DNA of 64,000 nt from Candidatus Palauibacter sp. (lineage in GTDB: Bacteria; Gemmatimonadota; Gemmatimonadetes; Palauibacterales; Palauibacteraceae). Numbering within the stretch: the stretch's first letter is position 1; every line of letters begins with the position of its first letter. The DNA is taken from assembly GCF_965237495.1 (NCBI RefSeq), contig NZ_OZ250143.1, forward strand, positions 515,918 through 579,917. The letters run 5' to 3'. Below the pieces are notes generated by a model. It made no database searches, was not told the DNA's origin, and saw only the letters and a program-made list of their open reading frames with translations. The position numbers were made by a program, and so were the translations under genes. Positions 6,226 through 23,091 of the stretch are shown here, piece after piece.

Positions 6226-9200
6226 TGACCCCCGGCCGCCCCGGCACCATGCTCCGCCGCCTCGAGGCGGAACTCCTGCTGTTGGGCTGGGCGAACCGGC
6301 AGTTCGGGTTCGAGACCAACCAAGCGCTCTTTGACGCCTTGAAGGATGCTCACGAGGGGTACGAGGACGGCCGCAGCCATGTCGCGCGCATGCTTCTGAG
6401 CCGGGAGCGCCTGATGGTTCCCGCGGACGACCTGGCCCGCTACGACGACAACGTGCGCCGCCATCTCGACTCCATAAACAAGGGACGGCGCGAGCCCATC
6501 ACCCTGCGGTATTTCCAGCAACTCGCGGCGCTGTACGCGGAACTCTTCTTGGCCCGGCGCGCTGCGTCCCCCGAAGCCCTCGCACGGCAGCTCCACCGGT
6601 ACGTCCGGGAGAAGGTCCACGGCCTGGGCACCTCCTACCCGGTGCGGGAGATCACTCCGGACGACCTGAACAAGCTCGCGTTCTGGATGGCGACGGGGAG
6701 CGGCAAGACGCTCATCATGCACCTCAACTACCTCCAGTTCCTGCACTACGGCGGGGCGGAGGGCCTGGACAACATCATCCTCATCACGCCCAACGAGGGG
6801 CTGAGCGCCCAGCACATGGAGGAAATGACCACGTCCGGCATCCCGTCGGCGCGTCTCGGCGAGGCCGGGCTGCTGGCGGGCGGCCGCTGCACCGTGCGGG
6901 TGACCGAGATCACCAAGCTTGTCGACAAGCGCCGCGGAAAGGGGACGGGTGTCAGCATCGAGGTCGAGGCGTTCGGCGACCGCAACCTCGTGTTCGTGGA
7001 CGAGGGCCACCGGGGCGCGAGCGGGGAGGCGTGGCGAGCGGTGCGCGACGCCGTGGCCGCGCGCGGCTTCACCTTCGAGTACAGCGCCACCTTCGGGCAG
7101 GCGCTGGCGGCGGCGCGCGACAACCAACTCACCCTCGACTACGGCAAGTCGATCCTCTTCGACTATTCGTACCCGTATTTTCACCGGGACGGGTTCGGCA
7201 AGGACTTCCGCGTCCTCAACGTGTCCGGCAAGGACCCGCCGCCAGAGCTGGCCGACCACCTCCTTTTCGGCAACCTCCTCTCCTTCTACGAGCAGCTCCG
7301 CGCCTATCGCGAGAACGCCGCCGAGCTGCGCGCCTACAATCTGGAGCAGCCGCTGTGGGTGTTCGTCGGCAAGAGTGTGAACGCGGTCTATAGACGTCGC
7401 GGGCGTGACACGAGCGACGTGCTCGCCGTGCAACTCTTCCTCCACCGCGTGCTCAACGAGCCCGACTGGGCGCGGGAGACGATCGGGAAGCTGCTGCGCG
7501 GCGAGTCGGGGCTGTACGCGGCGTGGAACGTGGACCTGTTTGCGGACCGCTTCAACGAGTTGGCGAAGCTCGGGGAGTCCCCGGATCGGATCTACGCCGA
7601 CATCCTCCGCACCGTGTTCCACGCCGATGGCCCCGGCGGGCTGCGCCTGTGCGACATCCGGGGCGCGCCCGGCGAACTCGGCCTCAAGGCGTCCGGGTCG
7701 GACGACTACTTCGGCCTCACCTACATCGGAGACACGGCGAAGTTCAAGCGGCTGGCACGGGAGGCAGAGGCGGGGATCATCTTCGAGGAGGACGCGGTCG
7801 GCGGCTCGATGTTCGGCCGGGTCAACGAGGCCGGGGCCACGGTCAACGTCCTCATCGGCGCCAAGAAGTTCGTCGAGGGCTGGAACTCATGGCGCGTGTC
7901 GAACATGGGCCTCATGAAGGTGGGACAGGCGGAGGGCTCCGAGATCATCCAGCTCTTCGGCCGCGGCGTGCGGCTCAAGGGCAGGGGGATGTCCCTCAAG
8001 CGGAGCACCTATCTGGAGGGTCCGCACCCGGACAAGGTGGGGCTCCTGGAGACGCTCAACATCTTCGCCGTGCGCGCCGACTACATGAAGAAGTTCCGGA
8101 CCTATCTGGAGCGCGAGGGACTCGAGGCGCGGGACAGCGTGACGCTGCGCGTGCCAGTCCGGGCCAACGAGGAGTTCCTGGGCCGGGGGCTCGTGGTTCC
8201 GGCCCTCCCGGAAGGAACCGACTTCGAGACGGAGGCGAACTTCGCGCTCGGTGCCGGCGCCGGGCTTCCGGTGCAGATCGACCGCGCCACGCGGGCCTCC
8301 TCGTGGGAGAGCGGTGCCCGCGGTCAGTCGGCGACGGAGGGAACGGCCGGGCACAGCCGTCCCGCCTCGGAGCTGCCGCTGGCGCTGGTGGATTGGGAAA
8401 GGGCGTACCTCGACCTCATGGAACACCGGCGGCAGAAGGGGATGCGGCCGCTGGCCGTCCCCGGGCCCGACGCGCTTCGGTCGCTCGTCGAGAGCGGGGC
8501 CGCCACGGTGTCGGCCGACGAGCATGTGTTCGAGCCCCGCAACTGGCACGACCGGGAGGACCTGCAAGCGATCGTGCACGCGGTGCTCCGGCGAACCGCG
8601 GACCGGTGCTGGCAGACCGAGCGGCGGACGTGGGAGGCCGAGCGCATGAAGTACCGCGAGGTGGACGCCGCCGATCCCAACCTTCTGCTGAACGTCGACC
8701 CCGAGGCGGCCAGCGCCTGGCCCGGCGGCCCCCAGCCTCACTATGTGGTTAGCGTCCCGCACGCCGACGCCGGTCTTCGCAACGAGCTCGTGGAACTCAT
8801 CGAACAGCGGGGCAAGCTCTACGAGCAGGAACTCGGCCCGCTCGCCCGCATCCACTTCGACCGCCACCTGTACCAGCCGCTGCTGATCGAGTCCTCGAAC
8901 GCCGACGTGAGGATCTCCCCGCCGCCGCTCAACGAGAGCGAAAAGCGGTTCGTCCGCGATCTCCGCGATTGGTGGGTGGACCGGGGCAGCGCCCTTCACC
9001 CCGGTGCGGAACTGTTTCTGCTCCGAAACCAGGGCCGGGGCTGCGGCGTGGGCTTCTCACTCGAGGGCCGCGGCTTCTACCCGGATTTCATCCTGTGGCT
9101 CATCGAGGGAGGCCACCAACGCGTCGTGTTCGTCGAACCGCACGGCATGCTCCACGCCCGCGCCTACGCCGAGGACGAAAAGGCCCGCCTACACGAGCGC

Positions 9201-13535: not shown

Positions 13536-14897
13536 TCAAGCTGCGCATTCTCGGTCGCTTTCCGGGTTGGCCACCCGCAGGGACGGCCGCCAGAAACGCA
13601 ACGTGGGGAATCCAAAGGCGTCCGTCTCGTACGAAAACAACAGGCCGCCGTCCACCGCCCCGAAGCCATCCGTGAAGTTCGCGGCCGCAAGGATGCGACC
13701 CGCGCCGGGATCCAACACCTCGATACGCTGCTCGTAGAGCGAGCAATTCTCGCGGCGCGTGTACTCTCCCGCCTCGGGGTGCAATCCCGGCGGGGTCTCC
13801 ACAAGGCAGTCCGCCCAGTTGGCCGCCGCCACCGAGATCATTACCCACAGCCGATCTCGGGAATCGCTCGTCATGTATCTGATCCCCGGCGAGCCGGGCT
13901 GGTCGGGGTGCAACTCCCTGCGCGGGGAGTTCGGCGGGAACCATTCGACCTCCCGGACCAGCGAGCGCAGGCGCGTCCCCGCCGCCGCGTCCCACAGATC
14001 GATCCGGTATTCCTCCGGCGACACCGACCAGACCTCGCCGCTGCGGGCGGCGGGCGTGATCGATCGAAAGGGTGACGGGGCGCCGGGCACCCCGACCGGC
14101 ACCTCGTCGAACGAGCGGACCACGTCACCCTCACCATTCATGAGGTGGAGGACGTACCCCACCCGGTCCGCGGCGTACATCGTGGCGTTGATCACATACG
14201 AGGAATCGTCGAGAACGACGGCGTCGTTCTCGAGTGTACCCGGCGAAAGGGGGTTCGTGTGCAACACCTCGAAGTCCGTCGCATCCAGCACGGTTCGGCG
14301 CCTGTTCAAGGCGTCAAAGACGTGCAGGCGGTCTCCGTGGGCGCGCACCCACCGAATCCACCGGTACTCGCCCGGCCCCTCGCCACCTCGTCCCACCCAG
14401 CGGCCGCCGGGGACATCCGCGGAGGCCACCAAGAAACGCTCGGGCCGTAGTTGCTCCGTGATCGCGAGGCGCCCGCCGGGCAGAGCCTCCACGTCGTAGG
14501 CGTTGGACACCCAGTTCTCGTCGTCCCACCCGCCGCCCCTGAACACCGGGCCGGGCTCCAGCTCGATCTCGCACGGCGGCTGCGGATCCTCCCGCAGCAC
14601 CGTGGGCTGCTGGGCCTGCACCGCCCGGGACGTAGCCACCAGAAGCGCGACGGCCAATAGCGTTCGGCAAGCGGCCTCAACGGCCGTCTGGGAGCGGCCG
14701 TGCAGGGCTACATGTCCCGGCGGCGAGGGGAGCGCGGACGACGCTCCGCGGGGGCCTTCACGGCGCAAGGTGTGAACCGGCACCGGCGGCGACCGCAGCG
14801 AGGAATTCCGGAGTGGCGAGGTGCCGGAGCGGAATGTGGACGGCAACGGTTCCCTGGGTGCATCCCCGAACTTGGATGGCCATGCGTTCGGTCGCAA
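13536..14897 (-). CDS. Secreted beta-propeller-like protein; start uncertain
   Basis: Signal-peptide-like LLAVALLVATSRAVQAQQ. Repetitive W/G-rich blades over 453 aa. The first ATG at 14897 would overlap the upstream gene by 140 nt, so an internal non-ATG start near 14650-14710 is likely. Confidence 0.5.
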   Translation of the reverse strand: MRPNAWPSKFGDAPREPLPSTFRSGTSPLRNSSLRSPPVPVHTLRREGPRGASSALPSPPGHVALHGRSQTAVEAACRTLLAVALLVATSRAVQAQQPTVLREDPQPPCEIELEPGPVFRGGGWDDENWVSNAYDVEALPGGRLAITEQLRPERFLVASADVPGGRWVGRGGEGPGEYRWIRWVRAHGDRLHVFDALNRRRTVLDATDFEVLHTNPLSPGTLENDAVVLDDSSYVINATMYAADRVGYVLHLMNGEGDVVRSFDEVPVGVPGAPSPFRSITPAARSGEVWSVSPEEYRIDLWDAAAGTRLRSLVREVEWFPPNSPRRELHPDQPGSPGIRYMTSDSRDRLWVMISVAAANWADCLVETPPGLHPEAGEYTRRENCSLYEQRIEVLDPGAGRILAAANFTDGFGAVDGGLLFSYETDAFGFPTLRFWRPSLRVANPESDRECAA

Positions 14898-15306
14898 AGT
14901 AAAACGGCGACTTCTCGGGCTGGCCGCGGATGATTCGGTACACCTCCAAGGCGTCGCCGGCCGACACCGCCGCCAAGACTGTCTTCAGCACACCTGCGTC
15001 GTACAGGATCCCGTCGATGCCGCCGCCCCGGCACCCGGGGGGGTGCTTCTCCGTGCAGCCCTTCGGGTATGGAACGCGCGGGTGTACTCCGTCTTTCCGC
15101 TTGTAGTACCCGTCGTTGTGGACAGGAGTCACTGCGGTATGGCACTCAGACAGATCATCGGGGTCTGGATTGCAATAGAAGGTGAGACAGTCCACACAGG
15201 AATCTTCGTCCTGCGCCGCCACCGGTTTGGGATCGACCGCCCCCGCCAACAGGACGGCTCCGACAAGCAGGAACGTGAAGTGATGAAGGGATTTGAGGTT
15301 AAACAC
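14758..15306 (-). CDS. Secreted Cys-rich hypothetical protein
   Basis: Signal peptide MFNLKSLHHFTFLLVGAVLLAGAV. Cys cluster DSCVDCLTFYCNPDPDDLSECH. GTG start at 15306 with a GGGAGG SD 5 nt upstream. Confidence 0.5.
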   Translation of the reverse strand: MFNLKSLHHFTFLLVGAVLLAGAVDPKPVAAQDEDSCVDCLTFYCNPDPDDLSECHTAVTPVHNDGYYKRKDGVHPRVPYPKGCTEKHPPGCRGGGIDGILYDAGVLKTVLAAVSAGDALEVYRIIRGQPEKSPFYFATERMAIQVRGCTQGTVAVHIPLRHLATPEFLAAVAAGAGSHLAP

Positions 15307-15330: not shown

Positions 15331-15408
15331 GGGACTCGCTCCCGGGACTCGCTCCCGGGACTCGCTCCCGGGACTCGCTCCCGGGACTCGCTCCCGGGAC
15401 TCGCTCCC
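15331..15408. repeat. Perfect tandem repeat, 6 copies of 13-bp unit GGGACTCGCTCCC
   Basis: Counted directly from the sequence: six contiguous identical units. The array lies 25 nt upstream of the GTG start of the 14758-15306 gene. Each unit has GGGA/TCCC complementary ends. Confidence 0.9.
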
Positions 15409-15616
15409 ACAATTACGCGTGTTCTTTGGCGGTCCGCAAGAGGCGTCCCGCTCTCACTGCGTCGTACTGTCGCACGTCCTCTTACGGTCCATGTACGGTA
15501 TGAATCCGGCGAACAAGATCCGGGAGACGAACCGGCGGACTCGCTTCGGCCCGACCGGATCACTCCCACCGACCGGTAGGCAGCCCCGACCGGTGGGCTG
15601 CCGTCGGTCCCGGGGC

Positions 15617-16060
15617 CTAGAGGAACGAGGGGTCGAACCCGTCCGAGGTCTCTCGCCGCTCCTCCGGCCGGACGAGGGTGAGGATCGCCCCCTGGGGTGC
15701 CACGAGATACCGGGTGCCCTCGAACGTGATCTCGACCGCCGCTTTCCGGAAGAAGAGGGCGTAGTCGCCCGGCCGTGCCTGCATGGGAAGGTAGCGCGCC
15801 TCGGTTGCGCCGATCTTCCACGGTTCATCGCCCAGTTCCGCGGGCGGCCCCACCGGCGTGCCGGGTCCGACCGCCACCACCGTGCCCGCCTGCACGGCCT
15901 GCTTGTCGATCGCGGTGGGAGGAAGATAGAGACCGACGTTGGTGCGCTCCTCGCCCTCCAGCGGTTCGATGAGCACACGGTCGCCGACGACGATGAGTCT
16001 CTTCTCGCTCAAGGCTTCCTTCCTGCAGGCGTTACTTCGGGGCTGGGGGTGACGGCGCAT
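15617..16060 (-). CDS. GroES/Cpn10-family protein
   Basis: KRLIVVGDRVLIEP...AGTVVAVGPG...GDYALFFRKAAVEITFEGTRYLVAPQGAILTLV aligns with the GroES fold, including mobile-loop and roof elements. ATG at 16060. Confidence 0.6.
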   Translation of the reverse strand: MRRHPQPRSNACRKEALSEKRLIVVGDRVLIEPLEGEERTNVGLYLPPTAIDKQAVQAGTVVAVGPGTPVGPPAELGDEPWKIGATEARYLPMQARPGDYALFFRKAAVEITFEGTRYLVAPQGAILTLVRPEERRETSDGFDPSFL

Positions 16061-16112
16061 CGTCACGATCCCCGCCGGACGATAGGGTGCCCCGGCATCC
16101 CCGGACAGGCTC

Positions 16113-17237
16113 TCAGCCGGTCGAGGTCCCGTCGGTCGCGTCGGGTTCGAGGCGCGAACGCTCCCCCTCGATGAAGCTCTCGGCGCTTTCCGGGACGAAC
16201 AGGTTGTCGGCGATGCGGGCGATCTCCTCCGCCTCCCGCCACCGGGCCTCGAGTTCCTTGAGTTCTCCCTCGAGCGCCTCGCGCTCGGCCTGCTCGTGCG
16301 TAGCCATCTCGATCGCCAGCCGCACATCCACCTTGAGGCCCGCCAGCGTCCCGGGCAGGGGTTTCGAGAGTGCCTCGATTTTCTTTGCCGAGAGGCCTGG
16401 CCGCCGGCGCCCGGAGAAGTCGCGCTGCGCGAGATCGGCAGCTTGTGGGAGAAACGCCTCGGGGTGGCCGGCCTCCTCGATTCGGGCCACCGCCGCGCGG
16501 ACCGTCTTGCGCCCGCCACCGCTCCGGTTCGCGTGTGCCATGAGTTGCCCGGCCAGGCCGATGGCCTCGCTGCCGTGAACGATCATCGTATGTCGCCGGT
16601 CCTTCTGCTTACGTGTCCTCAGCGACTTGTCCCAGCCCGGGATGTGATCGACGCTGAGATCCCATCCCGAGGCGTCGGCGCTCGGGACCAGGCGTGACGT
16701 GTAGAGGTGTTTTCGCTGGATCCGGATCGGGTCTTCGACCTCGTTCCTGAGACGGAGGATCACGCGATCTTGATACCACTGCTGGATCAGGCTCGGGATG
16801 CTCGAGAAGGCCGCAATCAGCGAGAAGCCCGTCACCATGCTCCCGGCGACAAAGGCCCCGGTCGCGGTCGCGCCCGCGCCGGTGATGAGCATGGCCCGGC
16901 GGCGTCGGCGGCCGAACTGGTCGCCGTAGCGCCATGCCGCGAACTCCTGGCGGACAGGGTCTCCCACGCGTACGAGTTCGAGCCCCTCTTTCAGCTTGGC
17001 GAGCCCGATGTTGTCCGTGGCGACCCGCATGCGGGTCGTCTCGAAGGCGCGCTCGCAGGCCTCGATCGCCTCCCACCGTGTCTCCAGCGGCGAGAGGTTC
17101 CAGCGCTCGCAGCGCCGGCAGACGACCCAGAGCCGTCCCTTGGCTCCGTCGAAGGCGAGGCGGTGCCCGACCGGGAACTCCTCGATGGCCTCGTTCCGGT
17201 CGAGGTCACCGTGGCAGAAGATGCAGGTCGTGTACAC
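16113..17237 (-). CDS. Zinc-ribbon membrane protein of unknown function (paralog 2 of tandem pair)
   Basis: N-terminal CIFCHG...CRRCERW 4-Cys ribbon, one TM segment and a C-terminal coiled coil, EREALEGELKELEARWREAEEIARIADN. GTG start lies immediately after the stop of paralog 1 (TGAGTG). Confidence 0.6.
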   Translation of the reverse strand: MYTTCIFCHGDLDRNEAIEEFPVGHRLAFDGAKGRLWVVCRRCERWNLSPLETRWEAIEACERAFETTRMRVATDNIGLAKLKEGLELVRVGDPVRQEFAAWRYGDQFGRRRRRAMLITGAGATATGAFVAGSMVTGFSLIAAFSSIPSLIQQWYQDRVILRLRNEVEDPIRIQRKHLYTSRLVPSADASGWDLSVDHIPGWDKSLRTRKQKDRRHTMIVHGSEAIGLAGQLMAHANRSGGGRKTVRAAVARIEEAGHPEAFLPQAADLAQRDFSGRRRPGLSAKKIEALSKPLPGTLAGLKVDVRLAIEMATHEQAEREALEGELKELEARWREAEEIARIADNLFVPESAESFIEGERSRLEPDATDGTSTG

Positions 17238-18329
17238 TCAGACGTTCCGCGACGGGTTCATGGGGTCGACGTCGATGCGCTCGTGCTCGCCGGCGATGAA
17301 GCCGTCAACGCTCTCGGGGACGAGCAGGTTGTCGGCGATGCGTGCGATCTCCTCGGCTTCGCGCCACCGCGCTTCGAGTTCCTTGAGTTCTCCCTCGAGG
17401 GCCTCTCGCTCGGCCTCCTCGTGCGTCGCCATTTCGATCGCCAACCGCGTGCTCTCGCTCATGCCCGCAAGCGTACCGGGCAGAGGTTTCCGCATCCGTT
17501 CGATTTTTCTTGCGGGCGGGTGGTCCTTGGCGGATCGCTGGAAGGCATGCAACGCCATGTCCGCCGCTTCGGGAAGAAACCCCTCGGGGTGGCCAGCGTG
17601 TTCGATCCGGCTCACCGCCCTGCGGATCGCGCTCTCCCTGCCCCCGCGACGGTTGGCTTGTGCCATCAACTGACCCGCGAGCCCGATCGCCTCGCGTCCG
17701 TGGATGATCATCGTCTCCCGCTTGTCCCCCCCGCTCCAGCCCGGAAGGTGATCGACGCGCAGCCCCCATCCACCGCCCTCGCGATCGGGCACGAGACGAG
17801 AGGTGTAAAGGTGTTTCCGGAGGACCCGAACCGGCGCTCCACCCTGATTCCGAGTCCGGAGGACAACGCGCTTGAGGTACCAGGTCTTCGTCAGCCTGGT
17901 CGTCAACCAGAGTGAGCCCAGGGAGAGTACGCCTCCCACAACGAGAGCCCCCGCGGCCGTCGCGGCCGCGCCGGTGATGAGCATGGCCCGCTTGCGGCGC
18001 CGACCGAACTGGTCTCCGTAGCGCCACGCGGCGAACTCCTGCCGGACGGGGTCGCCGACGCGCACGAGTTCGAGGCCCTCCTTGAGCTTCGCGAGGCCGA
18101 TGTTGTCGGAGGCGACCCGCATGCGGGTGGTCTCGAAGGCGCGTTCGCAGGCCTCGATCGCTTCCCACCGCGTCTCCAGCGGCGAGAGGTTCCAGCGCTC
18201 GCAGCGCCGACACACGACCCAGAGGCGTCCCCGCGAGCCGTCGAATGCGAGGCGGCGACCGACCGGGAACTCCTCGATGGCCTCGTTCCGGTAGAGGTCG
18301 CCGTGGCAGAAGATGCACGTCGTATACAT
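17238..18329 (-). CDS. Zinc-ribbon membrane protein of unknown function (paralog 1 of tandem pair)
   Basis: Same architecture as 16113-17237 and ~70% identical by eye. ATG at 18329 (MYTTCIFCHGDL). Confidence 0.6.
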   Translation of the reverse strand: MYTTCIFCHGDLYRNEAIEEFPVGRRLAFDGSRGRLWVVCRRCERWNLSPLETRWEAIEACERAFETTRMRVASDNIGLAKLKEGLELVRVGDPVRQEFAAWRYGDQFGRRRKRAMLITGAAATAAGALVVGGVLSLGSLWLTTRLTKTWYLKRVVLRTRNQGGAPVRVLRKHLYTSRLVPDREGGGWGLRVDHLPGWSGGDKRETMIIHGREAIGLAGQLMAQANRRGGRESAIRRAVSRIEHAGHPEGFLPEAADMALHAFQRSAKDHPPARKIERMRKPLPGTLAGMSESTRLAIEMATHEEAEREALEGELKELEARWREAEEIARIADNLLVPESVDGFIAGEHERIDVDPMNPSRNV

Positions 18330-18516
18330 TCGTCTCTCGATCCTCACCGCTGGACGCGTCGGCTGCGTAGCCGACGGCCCCCGCGTCGCCGTCCAATGTC
18401 GCTACGTGGCCCGGCCGGGGATACCCGCCACGGGCGTCACTTCATCGTCCGGCCCCGCAGTGATGGCCGCTCGGCTGTCTTCCCTCCGGCTGCGGGTTTC
18501 ATATGCAGAGTTGCGA

Positions 18517-18535
18517 TATAAAGAACATCTTTATA
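18517..18535. promoter_or_regulatory. Perfect 19-bp palindrome TATAAAGA-aca-TCTTTATA in AT-rich divergent promoter region; candidate PadR operator
   Basis: 8-bp arms are exact reverse complements. The site lies in the only AT-rich stretch between the padR start (18583, +) and the paralog operon start (18329, -). Confidence 0.5.
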
Positions 18536-18582
18536 GCCTGCAGGTGAAGTGGTGAGAAACCCGCGATTCGTAACCCCTTCAT

Positions 18583-18921
18583 GTGAGGCGCAGCGTGCAG
18601 GCGAACCTGTCGAAGCGAATCAACGAGCTACTGGTGCTCGCCGTTCTGGAGCGCGGGCCCGCCCACGGTTATCAGATCGCGCTCTCGGTGGAGGAGCGCA
18701 GTGGCGGCGCGTTCTCCTTCCAGCACGGTACGCTGTACCCGATCCTGCACCGGCTGGAAGCGAAGGGGCAGGTCCGGGGGTCTTGGGACGGGGAAGGGCG
18801 ACGGCGGAAGACGTATGAGATCACCGGCGCCGGACGGGGCGAACTCACGGACGGAGCGGAAGAGCTGGAGCGGCAGTTTCGAACGCTTCTCGAGGTCCTG
18901 GGGGGGACCCATGCGGCGTAA
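18583..18921 (+). CDS. PadR-family transcriptional regulator
   Basis: LVLAVLERGPAHGYQIALSVEERSGGAFSFQHGTLYPILHRLEAKGQV winged-helix PadR signature. Confidence 0.85.
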   Translation: MRRSVQANLSKRINELLVLAVLERGPAHGYQIALSVEERSGGAFSFQHGTLYPILHRLEAKGQVRGSWDGEGRRRKTYEITGAGRGELTDGAEELERQFRTLLEVLGGTHAA

Positions 18922-19714
18922 GCACCCGTTGGAGGCGGTCGAGCGCGATCTCAGGGTGTCGCCGCGGCGGCGTCTCGAGCTGATCGAGGAGCTGGGTGCG
19001 GACGCGGAGGCGCTCCAGGACGAGCTGCAGCGTCGGGGTCACCGCCCGGCTCAGGCCCGCCGGGCCGCGCTTCGGCGACTCGTCCCGACCGAGGAGGCGC
19101 TCGGGGAGCTTGAAGCGCAGCACGCGCCCCCTCTTGGCCGCTGGGTGCGGACCGCCGGGTGGCTCGACCGGGTGGAGCGTCTCGGCGTCGGGGCGGCCGC
19201 AGTCGTGGCCGGTGCGGCGGCGCTGGTTGTGGTTTGGTGGCACGCCCCCGCGAGCCCCACCCCCATTCTGGCCTGGCCCCAGGTGGCCGTGGTCGCGCTT
19301 CTCGCCGCCAACTGGACCCGGGCAGCCAAGCGCCTATGGATCGACGGAGACCTGCGACCGGCATTCCGTCAGCAACTGTGGCATCGGCAGATCGGCCTCG
19401 TCGTCGCGGCGATCGCCCTCGGGGCACTGGGGGCCGCCTGGGAGGGGTACAGCACGTTGGGCGCGCTCGAAGCCGAAGCCGCTGTGAGACGCCCAGCGGT
19501 GTGGGACGCCGTTCGCCGGAGCGTCTCCTTCGCCGCGCTCGGTCTAGGCGCTGCGATCTTCGGGCTCTTCGGCTGGCTCGCGATCACCCCACGTCTCATC
19601 ACCGACGAGATGATCGAGCGTCGCATTTCGATGTTCTTCACCCGTCCGCCGCTCACACTGACCTCATCCGGACTCGCCTCAACCAGACTCACATCAACCA
19701 AAGGGAGGGAATGA
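18911..19714 (+). CDS. PadR-associated membrane protein
   Basis: ATG at 18911 overlaps the padR stop. Several TM segments. This is the typical second gene of PadR operons. Confidence 0.5.
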   Translation: MRRKHPLEAVERDLRVSPRRRLELIEELGADAEALQDELQRRGHRPAQARRAALRRLVPTEEALGELEAQHAPPLGRWVRTAGWLDRVERLGVGAAAVVAGAAALVVVWWHAPASPTPILAWPQVAVVALLAANWTRAAKRLWIDGDLRPAFRQQLWHRQIGLVVAAIALGALGAAWEGYSTLGALEAEAAVRRPAVWDAVRRSVSFAALGLGAAIFGLFGWLAITPRLITDEMIERRISMFFTRPPLTLTSSGLASTRLTSTKGRE

Positions 19715-20085
19715 TGTCCTTCATCTCATCGCTCGGAGTCATCCAGTATCCGCTCTGGATCGTCCTTGCTCTGGTGCTGTTTCAGATCGGCCGCGCAACG
19801 ACCGACCTGGTTCGCCGCGAAGCCGCGGTCGACGGGCTGCGCATCCATTCAATTCTCATTCTGGGGGCCCTCGCGGCGTGCGTCGGCGTCCTCGGGTCGC
19901 TGGTCGGGGTGTGGATGGCGGCCGACTTCATCTCCCGGGCGGGTGACGTAAGCCCGGCGTTGGTCTGGAGCGGCATCCAGGTGGCACTGGGTTCCTCGAT
20001 CGTCGGCTTCCTCATCCTGGGCCTCGCGTCCGTCGCCTGGCTCGCTCTCCAATACACCGCGGCGCGCCGACAATCGGCCATCTAG
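19711..20085 (+). CDS. Small membrane protein
   Basis: GGGAGGG SD then ATG at 19711. Three predicted TM helices. Confidence 0.4.
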   Translation: MMSFISSLGVIQYPLWIVLALVLFQIGRATTDLVRREAAVDGLRIHSILILGALAACVGVLGSLVGVWMAADFISRAGDVSPALVWSGIQVALGSSIVGFLILGLASVAWLALQYTAARRQSAI

Positions 20086-20235
20086 AGGAGCCCGGAGCGC
20101 CCAACGCGGCGGCACCCGTTGCACCGGCCCGGCGGCCCGTTCTAGACTGATTCCCCCCGGCCGATGGGCGGCCGGATGAGTCCCGTTCTGGAGCTCCGCC
20201 GGCGCTCTTGCCGGCACAGGATCAGGAGTGGCCGC

Positions 20236-20703
<468 letters not shown>

Positions 20704-20727
20704 GCGGCCAGGGGAGGGACGAGAGAT

Positions 20728-23091
20728 ATGGCGACGGCTGAGAAATACGTAGGCGGCGGGGTCCCCAGGAAAGAGGATCCCAAGCTCCTCACCGGGCAGG
20801 GCCAGTTCGTGGAAGGCCTCACGCTGCCCGGCATGCTTCACATGGCACTCGTGCGCAGCCCGTTCGGATCGGCGCGCATCAACTCGGTGGATGTGTCCGC
20901 CGCCAGCGCCGCGGACGGCGTGGTGGCCGCGTTCAGCGGGGCGGACCTGGCCGGAGAATGGGCGGCCGGGCTGCCCATGGCGTGGCCCGTGACGGACGAC
21001 ATCCGGATCCCCGACCACTGGCCCGTGGCGCAGGATGTCGCGCGCTACGTGGGCGACGCGGTCGCGGTCGTGGTGGCGACCAGCCGCAACTCGGCGCTCG
21101 ACGCGGCGGAACTGGTGGAGGTCGACTACGAGGTGATGCAGGCGGTCGTGGACGTGGAGGCGGCGCTGGCCGACGACGCGCCCCGCGTGCACGAGTCGTT
21201 CGACGACAACAAGAGTTACACCTGGACCCTGACCAACGGCGACGTGGACGCGGCGTTCGCCAAGGCCGACGTCGTGGTCAAGGAGCGCTACACGCAGCCC
21301 CGGCTGATCCCGAACGCGATGGAGCCGCGCGCGGTCGTCGTCCAGTCGGTGCCCGCGGCGGGCGACTACACCGTCTGGTCGACCACGCAGATCCCGCACG
21401 TGGCGAAGGTGTTGTTCGCGCTCACGCTGGGGATTCCGGAGTCGCAGATGCGCGTGATCGCGCCGGATGTGGGCGGCGGCTTCGGCTCGAAGCTCAACGT
21501 GTACGCGGAGGAAGCGCTCTGCATCGCCCTCGCGCGCAGGCTCCGCAGACCGGTCAAGTGGGTGGCGAGCCGGAGCGAGGGGTATGTGGCCACGATCCAC
21601 GGCCGGGACCAGGTGCAGGAGATCGAGATCGCGGCGACCTCGGACGGCAGGATTCTGGGGTACCGGGTGAACATCCTCGCGGCCATGGGCGCCTATCTGC
21701 AGCTCGTGGCGCCGGGGGTCCCGCTTCTCGGGGCCTTCCTCTACTGCGGCTGCTACGGCGGGGAGGCGTACCACTTCGAGTGCACGGGCGTTTTCACGAA
21801 CACGACGCCGACGGACGCCTACCGCGGCGCGGGCCGGCCCGAGGCCACCTACGCGATCGAGCGGGCGATGGACGTGCTCGCCCGCGAGGTCGGGGTCGAC
21901 CCGACCGAGATCCGGCGGCGGAACTTCCTCCCGGCGGGCGACATGGTCCAGAGCCCGGGCGGCCTCGCCTTCGACTCGGCGAACTACGAGCCCGCGCTGG
22001 ACCGTGCCCTGGAACTGCTGGACTACGACGGGTTCCGCCGCGACCAGGCGGAGCGCAGGGAGAGCGGGGCGGGCAAGCAGATCGGCGTCGGGTTCTCCTC
22101 CTACGTGGAGATCTGCGGGCTCGCCCCCTCGCAGGTGCTGGCTTCGCTGAAATACGCGGCGGGCGGCTGGGACGCGGCCACGGTGCGCATGCTGCCGACC
22201 GGGAAAGCGGAGGTCGTGACGGGCAGCTCGCCGCACGGGCAGGGGCACGTGACCTCATGGTCCCAGATCGCGGCGGACGCGCTCGGGATTCCGTACGAGG
22301 ATGTCACGGTGCTGCACGGCGATACACATGTCGCGCCCCACGGGATGAACACATACGGAAGCCGCAGTCTCGCGGTGGCCGGGGTCGCGGTCTACAAGGC
22401 CTGCGGCCGGGTCGTCGACAAAGCGCGGCTCCTGGCGGCGCACCTGCTCGAGGTCGCGCCCGAGGATCTCGACTACGAGGCGGGGACCTTCTCCGTGAAG
22501 GGGGTTCCGGACCGCACGAAGTCGATGCCCGAACTCGCCTTCGCGGCGTGGACCGCCCACAGCCTGCCGGAGGGCTCGGAGCCCGGGCTCGAAGCGGGCT
22601 GTGTGTACGATCCGCCGAACTTCACCTTCCCGTTCGGTACGCACGTCGCCGTGGTCGAGGTGGACACCGACACGGGAGCCGTGGAGCTCGTCCGCTACAT
22701 CGCGGTCGACGACTGCGGGCCGGTGATCAACCCGGTGATCGTGGACGGACAGGTACACGGCGGCGTGGCGCAGGGGATCGCGGCCGCGCTGTACGAGGAG
22801 GCGACCTACGCCGAAGACGGGACGCTCGAGACCTCCTCCATGATCAACTATCTCGTGCCGTCGGCGGCCGAGTTCCCGTTCTTCGAGACGGACCGGACGG
22901 TGACGCCCAGTACCTCGAACCCGATGGGGGTGAAGGGGATCGGCGAGGCGGGGACGATCGGTTCCGCGCCGGCGGTCATCAACGCGGTCGTGGACGCGCT
23001 CGCGCACCTCGGCGTGACGGACGTCCCGATGCCGGCGACTCCGGAACGAGTATGGCGAGCCATTCAGGCGACGCAGGGAGGTGAGGCATGA
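20728..23091 (+). CDS. coxL: Molybdopterin-binding large subunit, form-II CoxL-like (xanthine dehydrogenase / aldehyde oxidase family)
   Basis: Active-site loop reads AYRGAGRPEA, the form-II variant, not the form-I VAYRCSFR. 787 aa. S-L-M gene order. Confidence 0.9.
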   Translation: MATAEKYVGGGVPRKEDPKLLTGQGQFVEGLTLPGMLHMALVRSPFGSARINSVDVSAASAADGVVAAFSGADLAGEWAAGLPMAWPVTDDIRIPDHWPVAQDVARYVGDAVAVVVATSRNSALDAAELVEVDYEVMQAVVDVEAALADDAPRVHESFDDNKSYTWTLTNGDVDAAFAKADVVVKERYTQPRLIPNAMEPRAVVVQSVPAAGDYTVWSTTQIPHVAKVLFALTLGIPESQMRVIAPDVGGGFGSKLNVYAEEALCIALARRLRRPVKWVASRSEGYVATIHGRDQVQEIEIAATSDGRILGYRVNILAAMGAYLQLVAPGVPLLGAFLYCGCYGGEAYHFECTGVFTNTTPTDAYRGAGRPEATYAIERAMDVLAREVGVDPTEIRRRNFLPAGDMVQSPGGLAFDSANYEPALDRALELLDYDGFRRDQAERRESGAGKQIGVGFSSYVEICGLAPSQVLASLKYAAGGWDAATVRMLPTGKAEVVTGSSPHGQGHVTSWSQIAADALGIPYEDVTVLHGDTHVAPHGMNTYGSRSLAVAGVAVYKACGRVVDKARLLAAHLLEVAPEDLDYEAGTFSVKGVPDRTKSMPELAFAAWTAHSLPEGSEPGLEAGCVYDPPNFTFPFGTHVAVVEVDTDTGAVELVRYIAVDDCGPVINPVIVDGQVHGGVAQGIAAALYEEATYAEDGTLETSSMINYLVPSAAEFPFFETDRTVTPSTSNPMGVKGIGEAGTIGSAPAVINAVVDALAHLGVTDVPMPATPERVWRAIQATQGGEA

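Follow-up and report, generated by a model that had tools for sequence, protein, structure and literature searches.

We analysed a stretch of 64,000 nucleotides (nt) from Candidatus Palauibacter (hereafter the window, always meaning the stretch at its full length), which has a GC content of 68.8% and whose closest matches are metagenome-assembled genomes (MAGs) of Candidatus Palauibacter, a lineage of the Gemmatimonadota found in sponges and marine habitats. The locus in question contains three genes on the minus strand, encoding two adjacent zinc-ribbon membrane proteins (paralogs A and B) and a protein of the Cpn10/GroES family, and a padR gene that diverges from them on the plus strand (Table 1). 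In an earlier note on this DNA (the original prediction), these genes were taken to form one membrane module with a GroES-like partner under PadR control. Our comparisons incline us, by a modest balance of probability, towards a different reading: the locus is a juxtaposition, at the level of the genus, of a padR operon, an old paralog pair and a divergent Cpn10 gene, each of which is conserved on its own. The paralogs, judged from sequence comparisons, are members of a very large unannotated family that has so far been found in Gemmatimonadota only.

Neither of the paralogs nor any of 127 aligned homologs matched a model in Pfam, NCBIfam, PADLOC or PHROGs. PDB sequences gave no match for the paralogs, searched singly or as a profile, Foldseek found no structural relative in PDB or among the predicted viral structures of BFVD, and we found nothing on the family in the literature. 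The statement that no family is known for these proteins is thus upheld by profile and structure searches, none of which gave a curated match. Related proteins number at least 7,995 in a collection clustered at 90% identity and 2,659 representatives at 50% identity (E ≤ 0.001), the best 150 of those listed being approximately 330–400 amino acids long; the best 120 family matches listed are unnamed or 'hypothetical', and none of these has a Pfam domain. Species-representative genomes contain at least 576 family stretches. Among the 79 related loci returned from these genomes, to which all neighbourhood counts given below refer, every locus with an organism name is from the Gemmatimonadota (Palauibacter, Longimicrobiales, Gemmatimonadales and Gemmatimonas), and the remainder are unnamed MAGs; one family match stems from the MAG of an uncultured Gemmatimonas sp. 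A single family entry in the databases is labelled Gammaproteobacteria, and this may be a mis-binned MAG.

Viral contigs (IMG/VR) contain no relative of the family and plasmids (PLSDB) no match, which, together with the missing PADLOC and PHROGs matches, led us to reject an origin from a defence system, phage or plasmid. We also considered a papillomavirus E6-type CxxC-x29-CxxC module, for which the profile of the N-terminal domain matched E6 chains with E = 0.02–0.05 and each individual stretch had E ≥ 7, a similarity confined to the pattern. The newness of the paralogs would be one of protein family alone, reflecting the absence of matches and not a demonstrated new function.

Paralogs A and B (363 and 374 amino acids) are 70% identical, and the stop codon of A abuts the start codon of B in the junction GTC TGA GTG TAC, as described in the original prediction for two adjacent paralogs with a TGAGTG stop/start arrangement. 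All homologs begin with the motif MY(T/S)TC, and the ATG start of paralog A yields MYTTC. The pair had been regarded as the product of a recent tandem duplication, marked by direct DNA repeats of about 1.1 kb. Such repeats exist, but they are only 76% identical (75.6% over 1,099 nt), with a longest identical run of 38 nt. A neighbour-joining tree built from every copy in the window and in 14 related loci has an A-type clade (the upstream copy) that stands apart from a B-type clade (the copy adjacent to the Cpn10 gene). Both clades hold orthologs from most Palauibacter genomes, and L011 and L012, which serve as single-copy outgroups, diverge ahead of the A/B split. With A and B forming separate orthologous clades across at least eight Candidatus Palauibacter genomes, a recent duplication is not supported, and the tree indicates that the duplication is old.

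A copy of the B type is present in all Palauibacter loci, the best database match of paralog B being 95% identical (P0001). Since the number of copies per locus among relatives is one (L002 and L005, both B-type), two (most loci) or three (L009), family copies have been gained and lost over evolutionary time; the pair in the window is nevertheless not recent. The main difference between the two types lies in the middle domain, which is 56% identical between A and B types and approximately 70% identical within a type. The N-terminal domain is 95–97% identical in every comparison of paralogs or orthologs. Synonymous differences in this domain are of similar size (0.17–0.28) whether paralogs or orthologs are compared, and we therefore attribute the near-identity to purifying selection and not to concerted evolution; recent duplication or gene conversion was rejected on the same grounds.

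Some individual copies deserve mention. In L082, the closest relative (the locus with the 95% identical paralog B), the ortholog of paralog A is 2 nt short at positions 7140–7170 ('gcgaagcaaggagg'), and the gene is called at just 275 amino acids; the gap was deduced against the window protein GLAKLKEGLELV and not from a DNA alignment, and this A-type gene is either a pseudogene or the result of an assembly error. The first copy in L009 is apparently split near its C-terminus. In Longimicrobiales and other lineages (L034, L038, L043, L045, L046, L056 and L076), two or three further family members lie within a few kb, in tandem or divergently arranged, and multi-copy clusters thus occur in several lineages.

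We modelled paralog B with AlphaFold2. With an alignment of 32 sequences the N-terminal third remained unmodelled, and with 127 diverse sequences the model reached a predicted local distance difference test score (pLDDT) of 90.7 and a predicted template-modelling score (pTM) of 0.82. The latter model begins with a three-stranded zinc ribbon containing Cys5/Cys8 and Cys40/Cys43, followed by a helix (residues 51–67) and three strands up to residue 91. Two helices (102–136 and 141–156) linked by a short turn lead into a five-stranded alpha/beta domain with four helices (159–288). The C-terminus consists of a 44-residue helix (303–346) and a final helix. All four cysteines are invariant in the 127 homologs, which bears out the CxxC...CxxC ribbon ascribed to each paralog, and invariant Arg and Trp residues are also present. 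Conservation in the homolog alignment is concentrated in residues 1–111 and the long helix, whose consensus (LALEMAxHEExERRALEGELxxLExAWREAEEIAAIAD) is acidic and strongly conserved. Where a C-terminal coiled coil had been proposed, the model shows this long helix.

The paralogs had also been assigned one transmembrane helix. The hydrophobic segment is there, as an uncharged stretch (median length 40 residues, Gly content 19%), preceded by a run of about five Arg (net charge +4.6) and followed by a second basic flank (net charge +1.8). Because of the length of the stretch, the positive charges on both of its sides and the modelled helix-turn-helix, it most likely forms a membrane hairpin that leaves both soluble parts in the cytoplasm, and a single span is less likely. 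Two-helix membrane hairpins with a glycine zipper are represented by the Gly-zipper families of Pfam. These resemble the paralogs in having a Gly/Ala-rich segment, approximately 40 uncharged residues and GxxxG-like spacing. However, none of the 127 members matched a Gly-zipper model among the 25 Pfam families matched most frequently at E ≤ 1, and in the paralogs the hairpin anchors the protein from an internal position, with a large soluble domain on either side.

The region between paralog A and padR contains the most AT-rich 40-mer of the window (18497–18536, 30% GC), in line with the AT-rich segment noted earlier between the operon and padR. Within it lies the inverted repeat TATAAAGA-ACA-TCTTTATA. 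The repeat had been described as a perfect 19-bp palindrome; it is real, but consists of 8-nt arms around a non-palindromic 3-nt spacer. The site occurs nowhere else in the window, and its expected count in shuffled sequences is zero. In an alignment with the intergenic regions of nine Palauibacter relatives the repeat is conserved and the flanks diverge, and most relatives possess a longer 11-1-11 palindrome with the consensus GATATAAAGATnATCTTTATATC. Of the loci that we fetched, the 11 with padR (nine obtained in the genome scan, together with the near-identical contigs L082 and L083) each have a single copy of the palindrome pattern, and the other 76 lack it. This conservation amid diverging flanks supports the view that the palindrome behaves as a functional element.

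On the padR strand, TTGCGA is followed after 17 nt by a −10 hexamer, which is TATCAT in the relatives and TAGCCT in the window, and the palindrome fills the spacer of this sigma-70-like promoter of padR itself. Since this is the position expected for the auto-operator of a repressor, autoregulation of PadR through the predicted operator is supported. When the intergenic regions of L001 and L004 were scanned with a promoter consensus, TTGCGA-17-TATCAT was the sole site reported in either. The ATG of padR lies 7 nt past the −10 hexamer in L004 and L007, which suggests that padR mRNA is leaderless in these two loci. A second block, GCGGGTATCC-N17-CGACATTGG, has a fixed internal spacing and is conserved in nine of ten intergenic regions (the window and eight relatives; L002 has a variant form). 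Its distances to the palindrome (52–136 nt) and to the start codon (14–73 nt) vary, and we regard it as a candidate for a separate promoter of the paralog operon that is not sigma-70-like. Leader and intergenic regions gave no Rfam match at E ≤ 1 and folds that are not better than those of shuffled sequences, and a known RNA element was rejected on these grounds.

The product of padR matches PF03551 with 84.9 bits (cut-off 27, E = 4e-24), confirming the divergent regulatory gene of the original prediction. The closest more specific model is TIGR03433 (padR_acidobact), of which the protein is not a member (81.6 bits, below the cut-off of 101.8). The second gene of the padR operon weakly matches NF038403, 'permease prefix domain 1' (20.6 bits, below the cut-off of 30), a domain that heads permeases according to its NCBIfam description and that we take to be linked to PadR-type regulators. 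The third gene gives a borderline match to MotA_ExbB (MotA/TolQ/ExbB; 22.0 bits, cut-off 22.9). Both membrane-protein genes are conserved together with padR in L001–L010, and the genes of the operon overlap each other. Autoregulated single-domain PadR repressors, for example those of the LmrR type, form a subfamily of approximately 110 amino acids. The operon shares with them a winged helix of about this size, a dyad operator over its own promoter and downstream genes for membrane proteins. It differs in that the operator GATATAAAGATnATCTTTATATC was not matched to a described PadR site, that the regulator scores below the TIGR03433 cut-off and that its DNA binding is predicted. The padR operon with its auto-operator is of a known and ordinary kind.

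The gene downstream of paralog B matches PF00166 with 46.7 bits (cut-off 21.1), in agreement with the Cpn10/GroES-fold gene that had been predicted on this strand, and the protein aligned over its full length with PDB chains of Cpn10, with E-values down to 6e-9. The gap to paralog B had been given as 52 nt. This holds for the ATG at 16060, but the TTG at 16012 is most likely the start, resulting in a protein of 131 amino acids and a gap of 100 nt, since the homologs have 125–135 amino acids and the gene of the closest relative encodes 131 amino acids after a gap of 96 nt. An intrinsic terminator between paralog B and the Cpn10 gene was looked for, and no terminator-like site was found in the gap.

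Homologs of this Cpn10 protein number in the thousands and are 70–93% identical; those annotated by NCBI are called 'co-chaperone GroES family protein', and those with an organism name are from the Gemmatimonadota. In the alignment with chloroplast Cpn20-type chains, the GLYLPP sequence of the window protein falls on their mobile-loop region, GGILLPP. The protein differs from GroES in its length (approximately 95–100 amino acids in canonical GroES), in its scores, which are below the cut-off for all 14 NCBIfam GroES models (best 49.4 bits, cut-off 96), and in belonging to a separate lineage. Furthermore, a motif search found no GroEL signature in any frame of the window, and no chaperonin gene adjoins the Cpn10 homolog in L080. 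We conclude that the gene is, by its sequence matches, a divergent member of a known family that is linked to the paralogs here by lineage-specific synteny.

The Cpn10 gene follows a family member in 14 of the 79 loci (L001–L012 and L049) and lies 4 kb off in one further locus, L036, and padR is the divergent neighbour in 10, all of them Palauibacter. The other 65 have neither neighbour. A family-wide module with GroES-like protein and PadR is therefore not borne out; both associations are restricted to the closest clades. Clustering of the neighbouring open reading frames of the 79 loci revealed clade-specific synteny only, with no other recurrent neighbour, and we rejected the idea that the family as a whole has a conserved neighbourhood. 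Among the other contexts examined, one clade has a GNAT acetyltransferase gene with ApbE and a different clade a PALP enzyme. In L084 (5001–6670) and L086 (5001–6604), from another clade of the Gemmatimonadota, the family member overlaps the GNAT acetyltransferase gene by 4 nt, genes for ApbE and DoxX follow, and a gene for a MauG-type cytochrome c peroxidase is located divergently upstream.

Could the palindrome nevertheless control both divergent units, placing the zinc-ribbon pair, with or without Cpn10, in a PadR stress regulon? The padR/paralog divergence is kept in all ten Palauibacter loci irrespective of whether they have one, two or three copies, the palindrome lies just 52–55 nt from the second block in five loci, and it is the sole such site in the window. 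On the other hand, it is fixed within the padR promoter while its distance to the block on the paralog side varies from 52 to 136 nt, the sister lineages L011, L012 and L049 retain zinc-ribbon and Cpn10 genes in the absence of PadR and palindrome, and a further 65 loci lack both neighbours. We consider such a regulon rather doubtful; control of the paralogs by PadR is possible given the adjacency kept across the genus, and the operator geometry lends it no support. A chaperone-like module, in which a membrane-tethered client or adaptor works with the co-chaperonin, is more doubtful still and in our view very unlikely. The Cpn10 gene is on the same strand, 100 nt away with no terminator-like site called in between, the adjacency persists in 14 loci spanning 57–95% identity, and two weak, independent matches to Hsp70 substrate-binding domains were obtained (Foldseek, 1u00_A, E = 0.09; hmmsearch, 4f01, E = 2.4). 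Yet 65 of the 79 loci lack the adjacency, and the Cpn10 gene, whose conservation far exceeds that of the paralogs, adjoins unrelated genes elsewhere. The substrate-binding domain itself was rejected for the paralogs: hhalign gave a probability of 1% against that of DnaK, and the Foldseek template-modelling scores of 0.09–0.13 are meaningless.

Another alternative concerns the paralogs alone. Zinc-binding anti-sigma factors and TcaA-like proteins are bacterial membrane proteins whose N-terminus forms a zinc ribbon in the cytoplasm, and the paralogs share with them the N-terminal Cys4 module, a basic segment next to the membrane and a hydrophobic anchor. The paralogs might cross the membrane once, with the zinc domain in the cytoplasm and a sensor domain in the periplasm, and act like zinc-binding anti-sigma or signal-transducing factors. 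The variable part of the paralogs is indeed the region after the hydrophobic segment, and the second intergenic block (GTATCC-N17-CGAC) may loosely resemble promoters of extracytoplasmic function sigma factors. However, the cysteines are arranged as CxxC-x31-CxxC and not as the HxxxCxxC of anti-sigma factors, there is no Pfam anti-sigma match and no match in sequence or fold to these proteins, their anchor is most likely a Gly-rich hairpin in place of a single span, and their C-terminal domain and helix have no known counterpart. No partner or recurrent sigma-factor gene was seen among the 79 loci, where only lineage-specific neighbours recur. The median uncharged stretch of 40 residues with a positive cluster directly after it, the helix-turn-helix of the model, a pTM that implies packing of the domains against each other and a highly acidic, most conserved C-terminal helix without export signal all speak against this alternative, and we judge the single-pass sensor to be unlikely.

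Our preferred reading, the juxtaposition of separately conserved units, would work as follows. A PadR dimer would bind the inverted repeat in the promoter spacer and repress its own operon. Paralogs A and B would be translationally coupled and made in a fixed ratio, and mixed oligomers may form. The hairpin would dip into the membrane and return, leaving both soluble parts in the cytoplasm, where the conserved N-terminal domain and C-terminal helix could engage a conserved partner and the variable alpha/beta domain could give each copy its specificity. The paralogs may thus be zinc-binding adaptors or regulators that are anchored at the membrane on its cytoplasmic side, a suggestion that we make with low confidence. 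The description of their architecture is well supported, and the functional part is of low confidence.

Several points weigh against this reading. The evidence, drawn from the window and its relatives, is computational throughout. The padR adjacency is kept in all ten Palauibacter loci, including the two with a single copy, which leaves room for a regulatory link to the paralogs. The uncharged stretch of paralog A is only 30 residues long and would be compatible with a single span, and the hairpin topology is derived from composition, charge and the secondary structure of the AlphaFold2 model. The adaptor role is a guess for a family without known partner, ligand or phenotype. The consensus scan called no promoter in the window, whose own −10 hexamer TAGCCT is weak, and the sigma-70-like assignment has to be read in light of a promoter consensus that is not established for Gemmatimonadota.

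Table 1. Features of the padR–paralog–Cpn10 locus, in window coordinates
Feature	Position	Strand	Description
Paralog A	17238..18329	-	363 amino acids, ATG 18329, stop 17238–17240; coding span without stop 17241–18329; predicted zinc ribbon, Gly-rich hydrophobic hairpin (most likely), alpha/beta domain, long acidic helix
Paralog B	16113..17237	-	374 amino acids, GTG start abutting stop of A; coding span without stop 16116–17237
Cpn10/GroES-family gene, divergent	15617..16012	-	131 amino acids from TTG 16012 (most likely start); alternative ATG 16060
GC-rich 8-bp stem-loop, GGCAGCCC-N8-GGGCTGCC	15579..15602	-	just past Cpn10 stop; no T-run
Inverted repeat, ATATAAAGA-ACA-TCTTTATAg	18516..18536	.	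core 18517–18535, 8-3-8; probable PadR operator
Putative padR promoter	18511..18539	+	−35 TTGCGA 18511–18516, 17-nt spacer (the palindrome), −10 TAGCCT 18534–18539
Second conserved intergenic block, GCGGGTATCC-N17-CGACATTGG	18393..18428	-	candidate paralog-operon promoter, not sigma-70-like
padR	18583..18921	+	108–112 amino acids; GTG start 18583 or 18595; single-domain winged-helix regulator
Membrane protein, second padR-operon gene	18911..19714	+	overlaps padR stop codon
Small membrane protein, third padR-operon gene	19711..20085	+	124 amino acids; ATGA overlap with preceding gene

The surroundings of the locus contain a few further features. The stem-loop past the Cpn10 stop is possibly the end of the transcript; its fold is not better than those of shuffled sequences (z = −1.1), which makes it weak evidence. 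Between the Cpn10 gene and the next open reading frame on the minus strand (14758–15306), six copies of the 13-nt unit GGGACTCGCTCCC form a perfect tandem repeat (15331–15408). The closest relatives, L082 and L083, have four copies, and the copy number thus varies between near-identical genomes. The DNA 3′ of the padR operon (20164–23091) encodes a molybdenum hydroxylase (CO or xanthine dehydrogenase type), among whose genes are those for the [2Fe-2S] small subunit (Fer2_2, 3e-33) and for a large subunit of 787 amino acids; L082 carries the same genes.

Soils, sediments and sponges harbour Gemmatimonadota in abundance, but the genetics of this phylum has barely been studied. The conserved operator and promoter upstream of padR represent one of few concrete promoter/operator predictions for this phylum. 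The most far-reaching interpretation of the paralogs, which we consider a long shot, is that they form an undescribed machine specific to Gemmatimonadota, whose fold is without counterpart among solved structures and which plays a core cellular role on the inner side of the membrane (e.g., in the control of envelope, division or proteostasis), and that this machine has been wired to a divergent Cpn10 and a PadR switch in Palauibacter. With thousands of members, a confident predicted structure and often several copies per genome, the family is in any case a candidate for a lineage-specific factor of Gemmatimonadota cell biology, and it would be a target for functional study in cultured Gemmatimonas if a homolog is present there.

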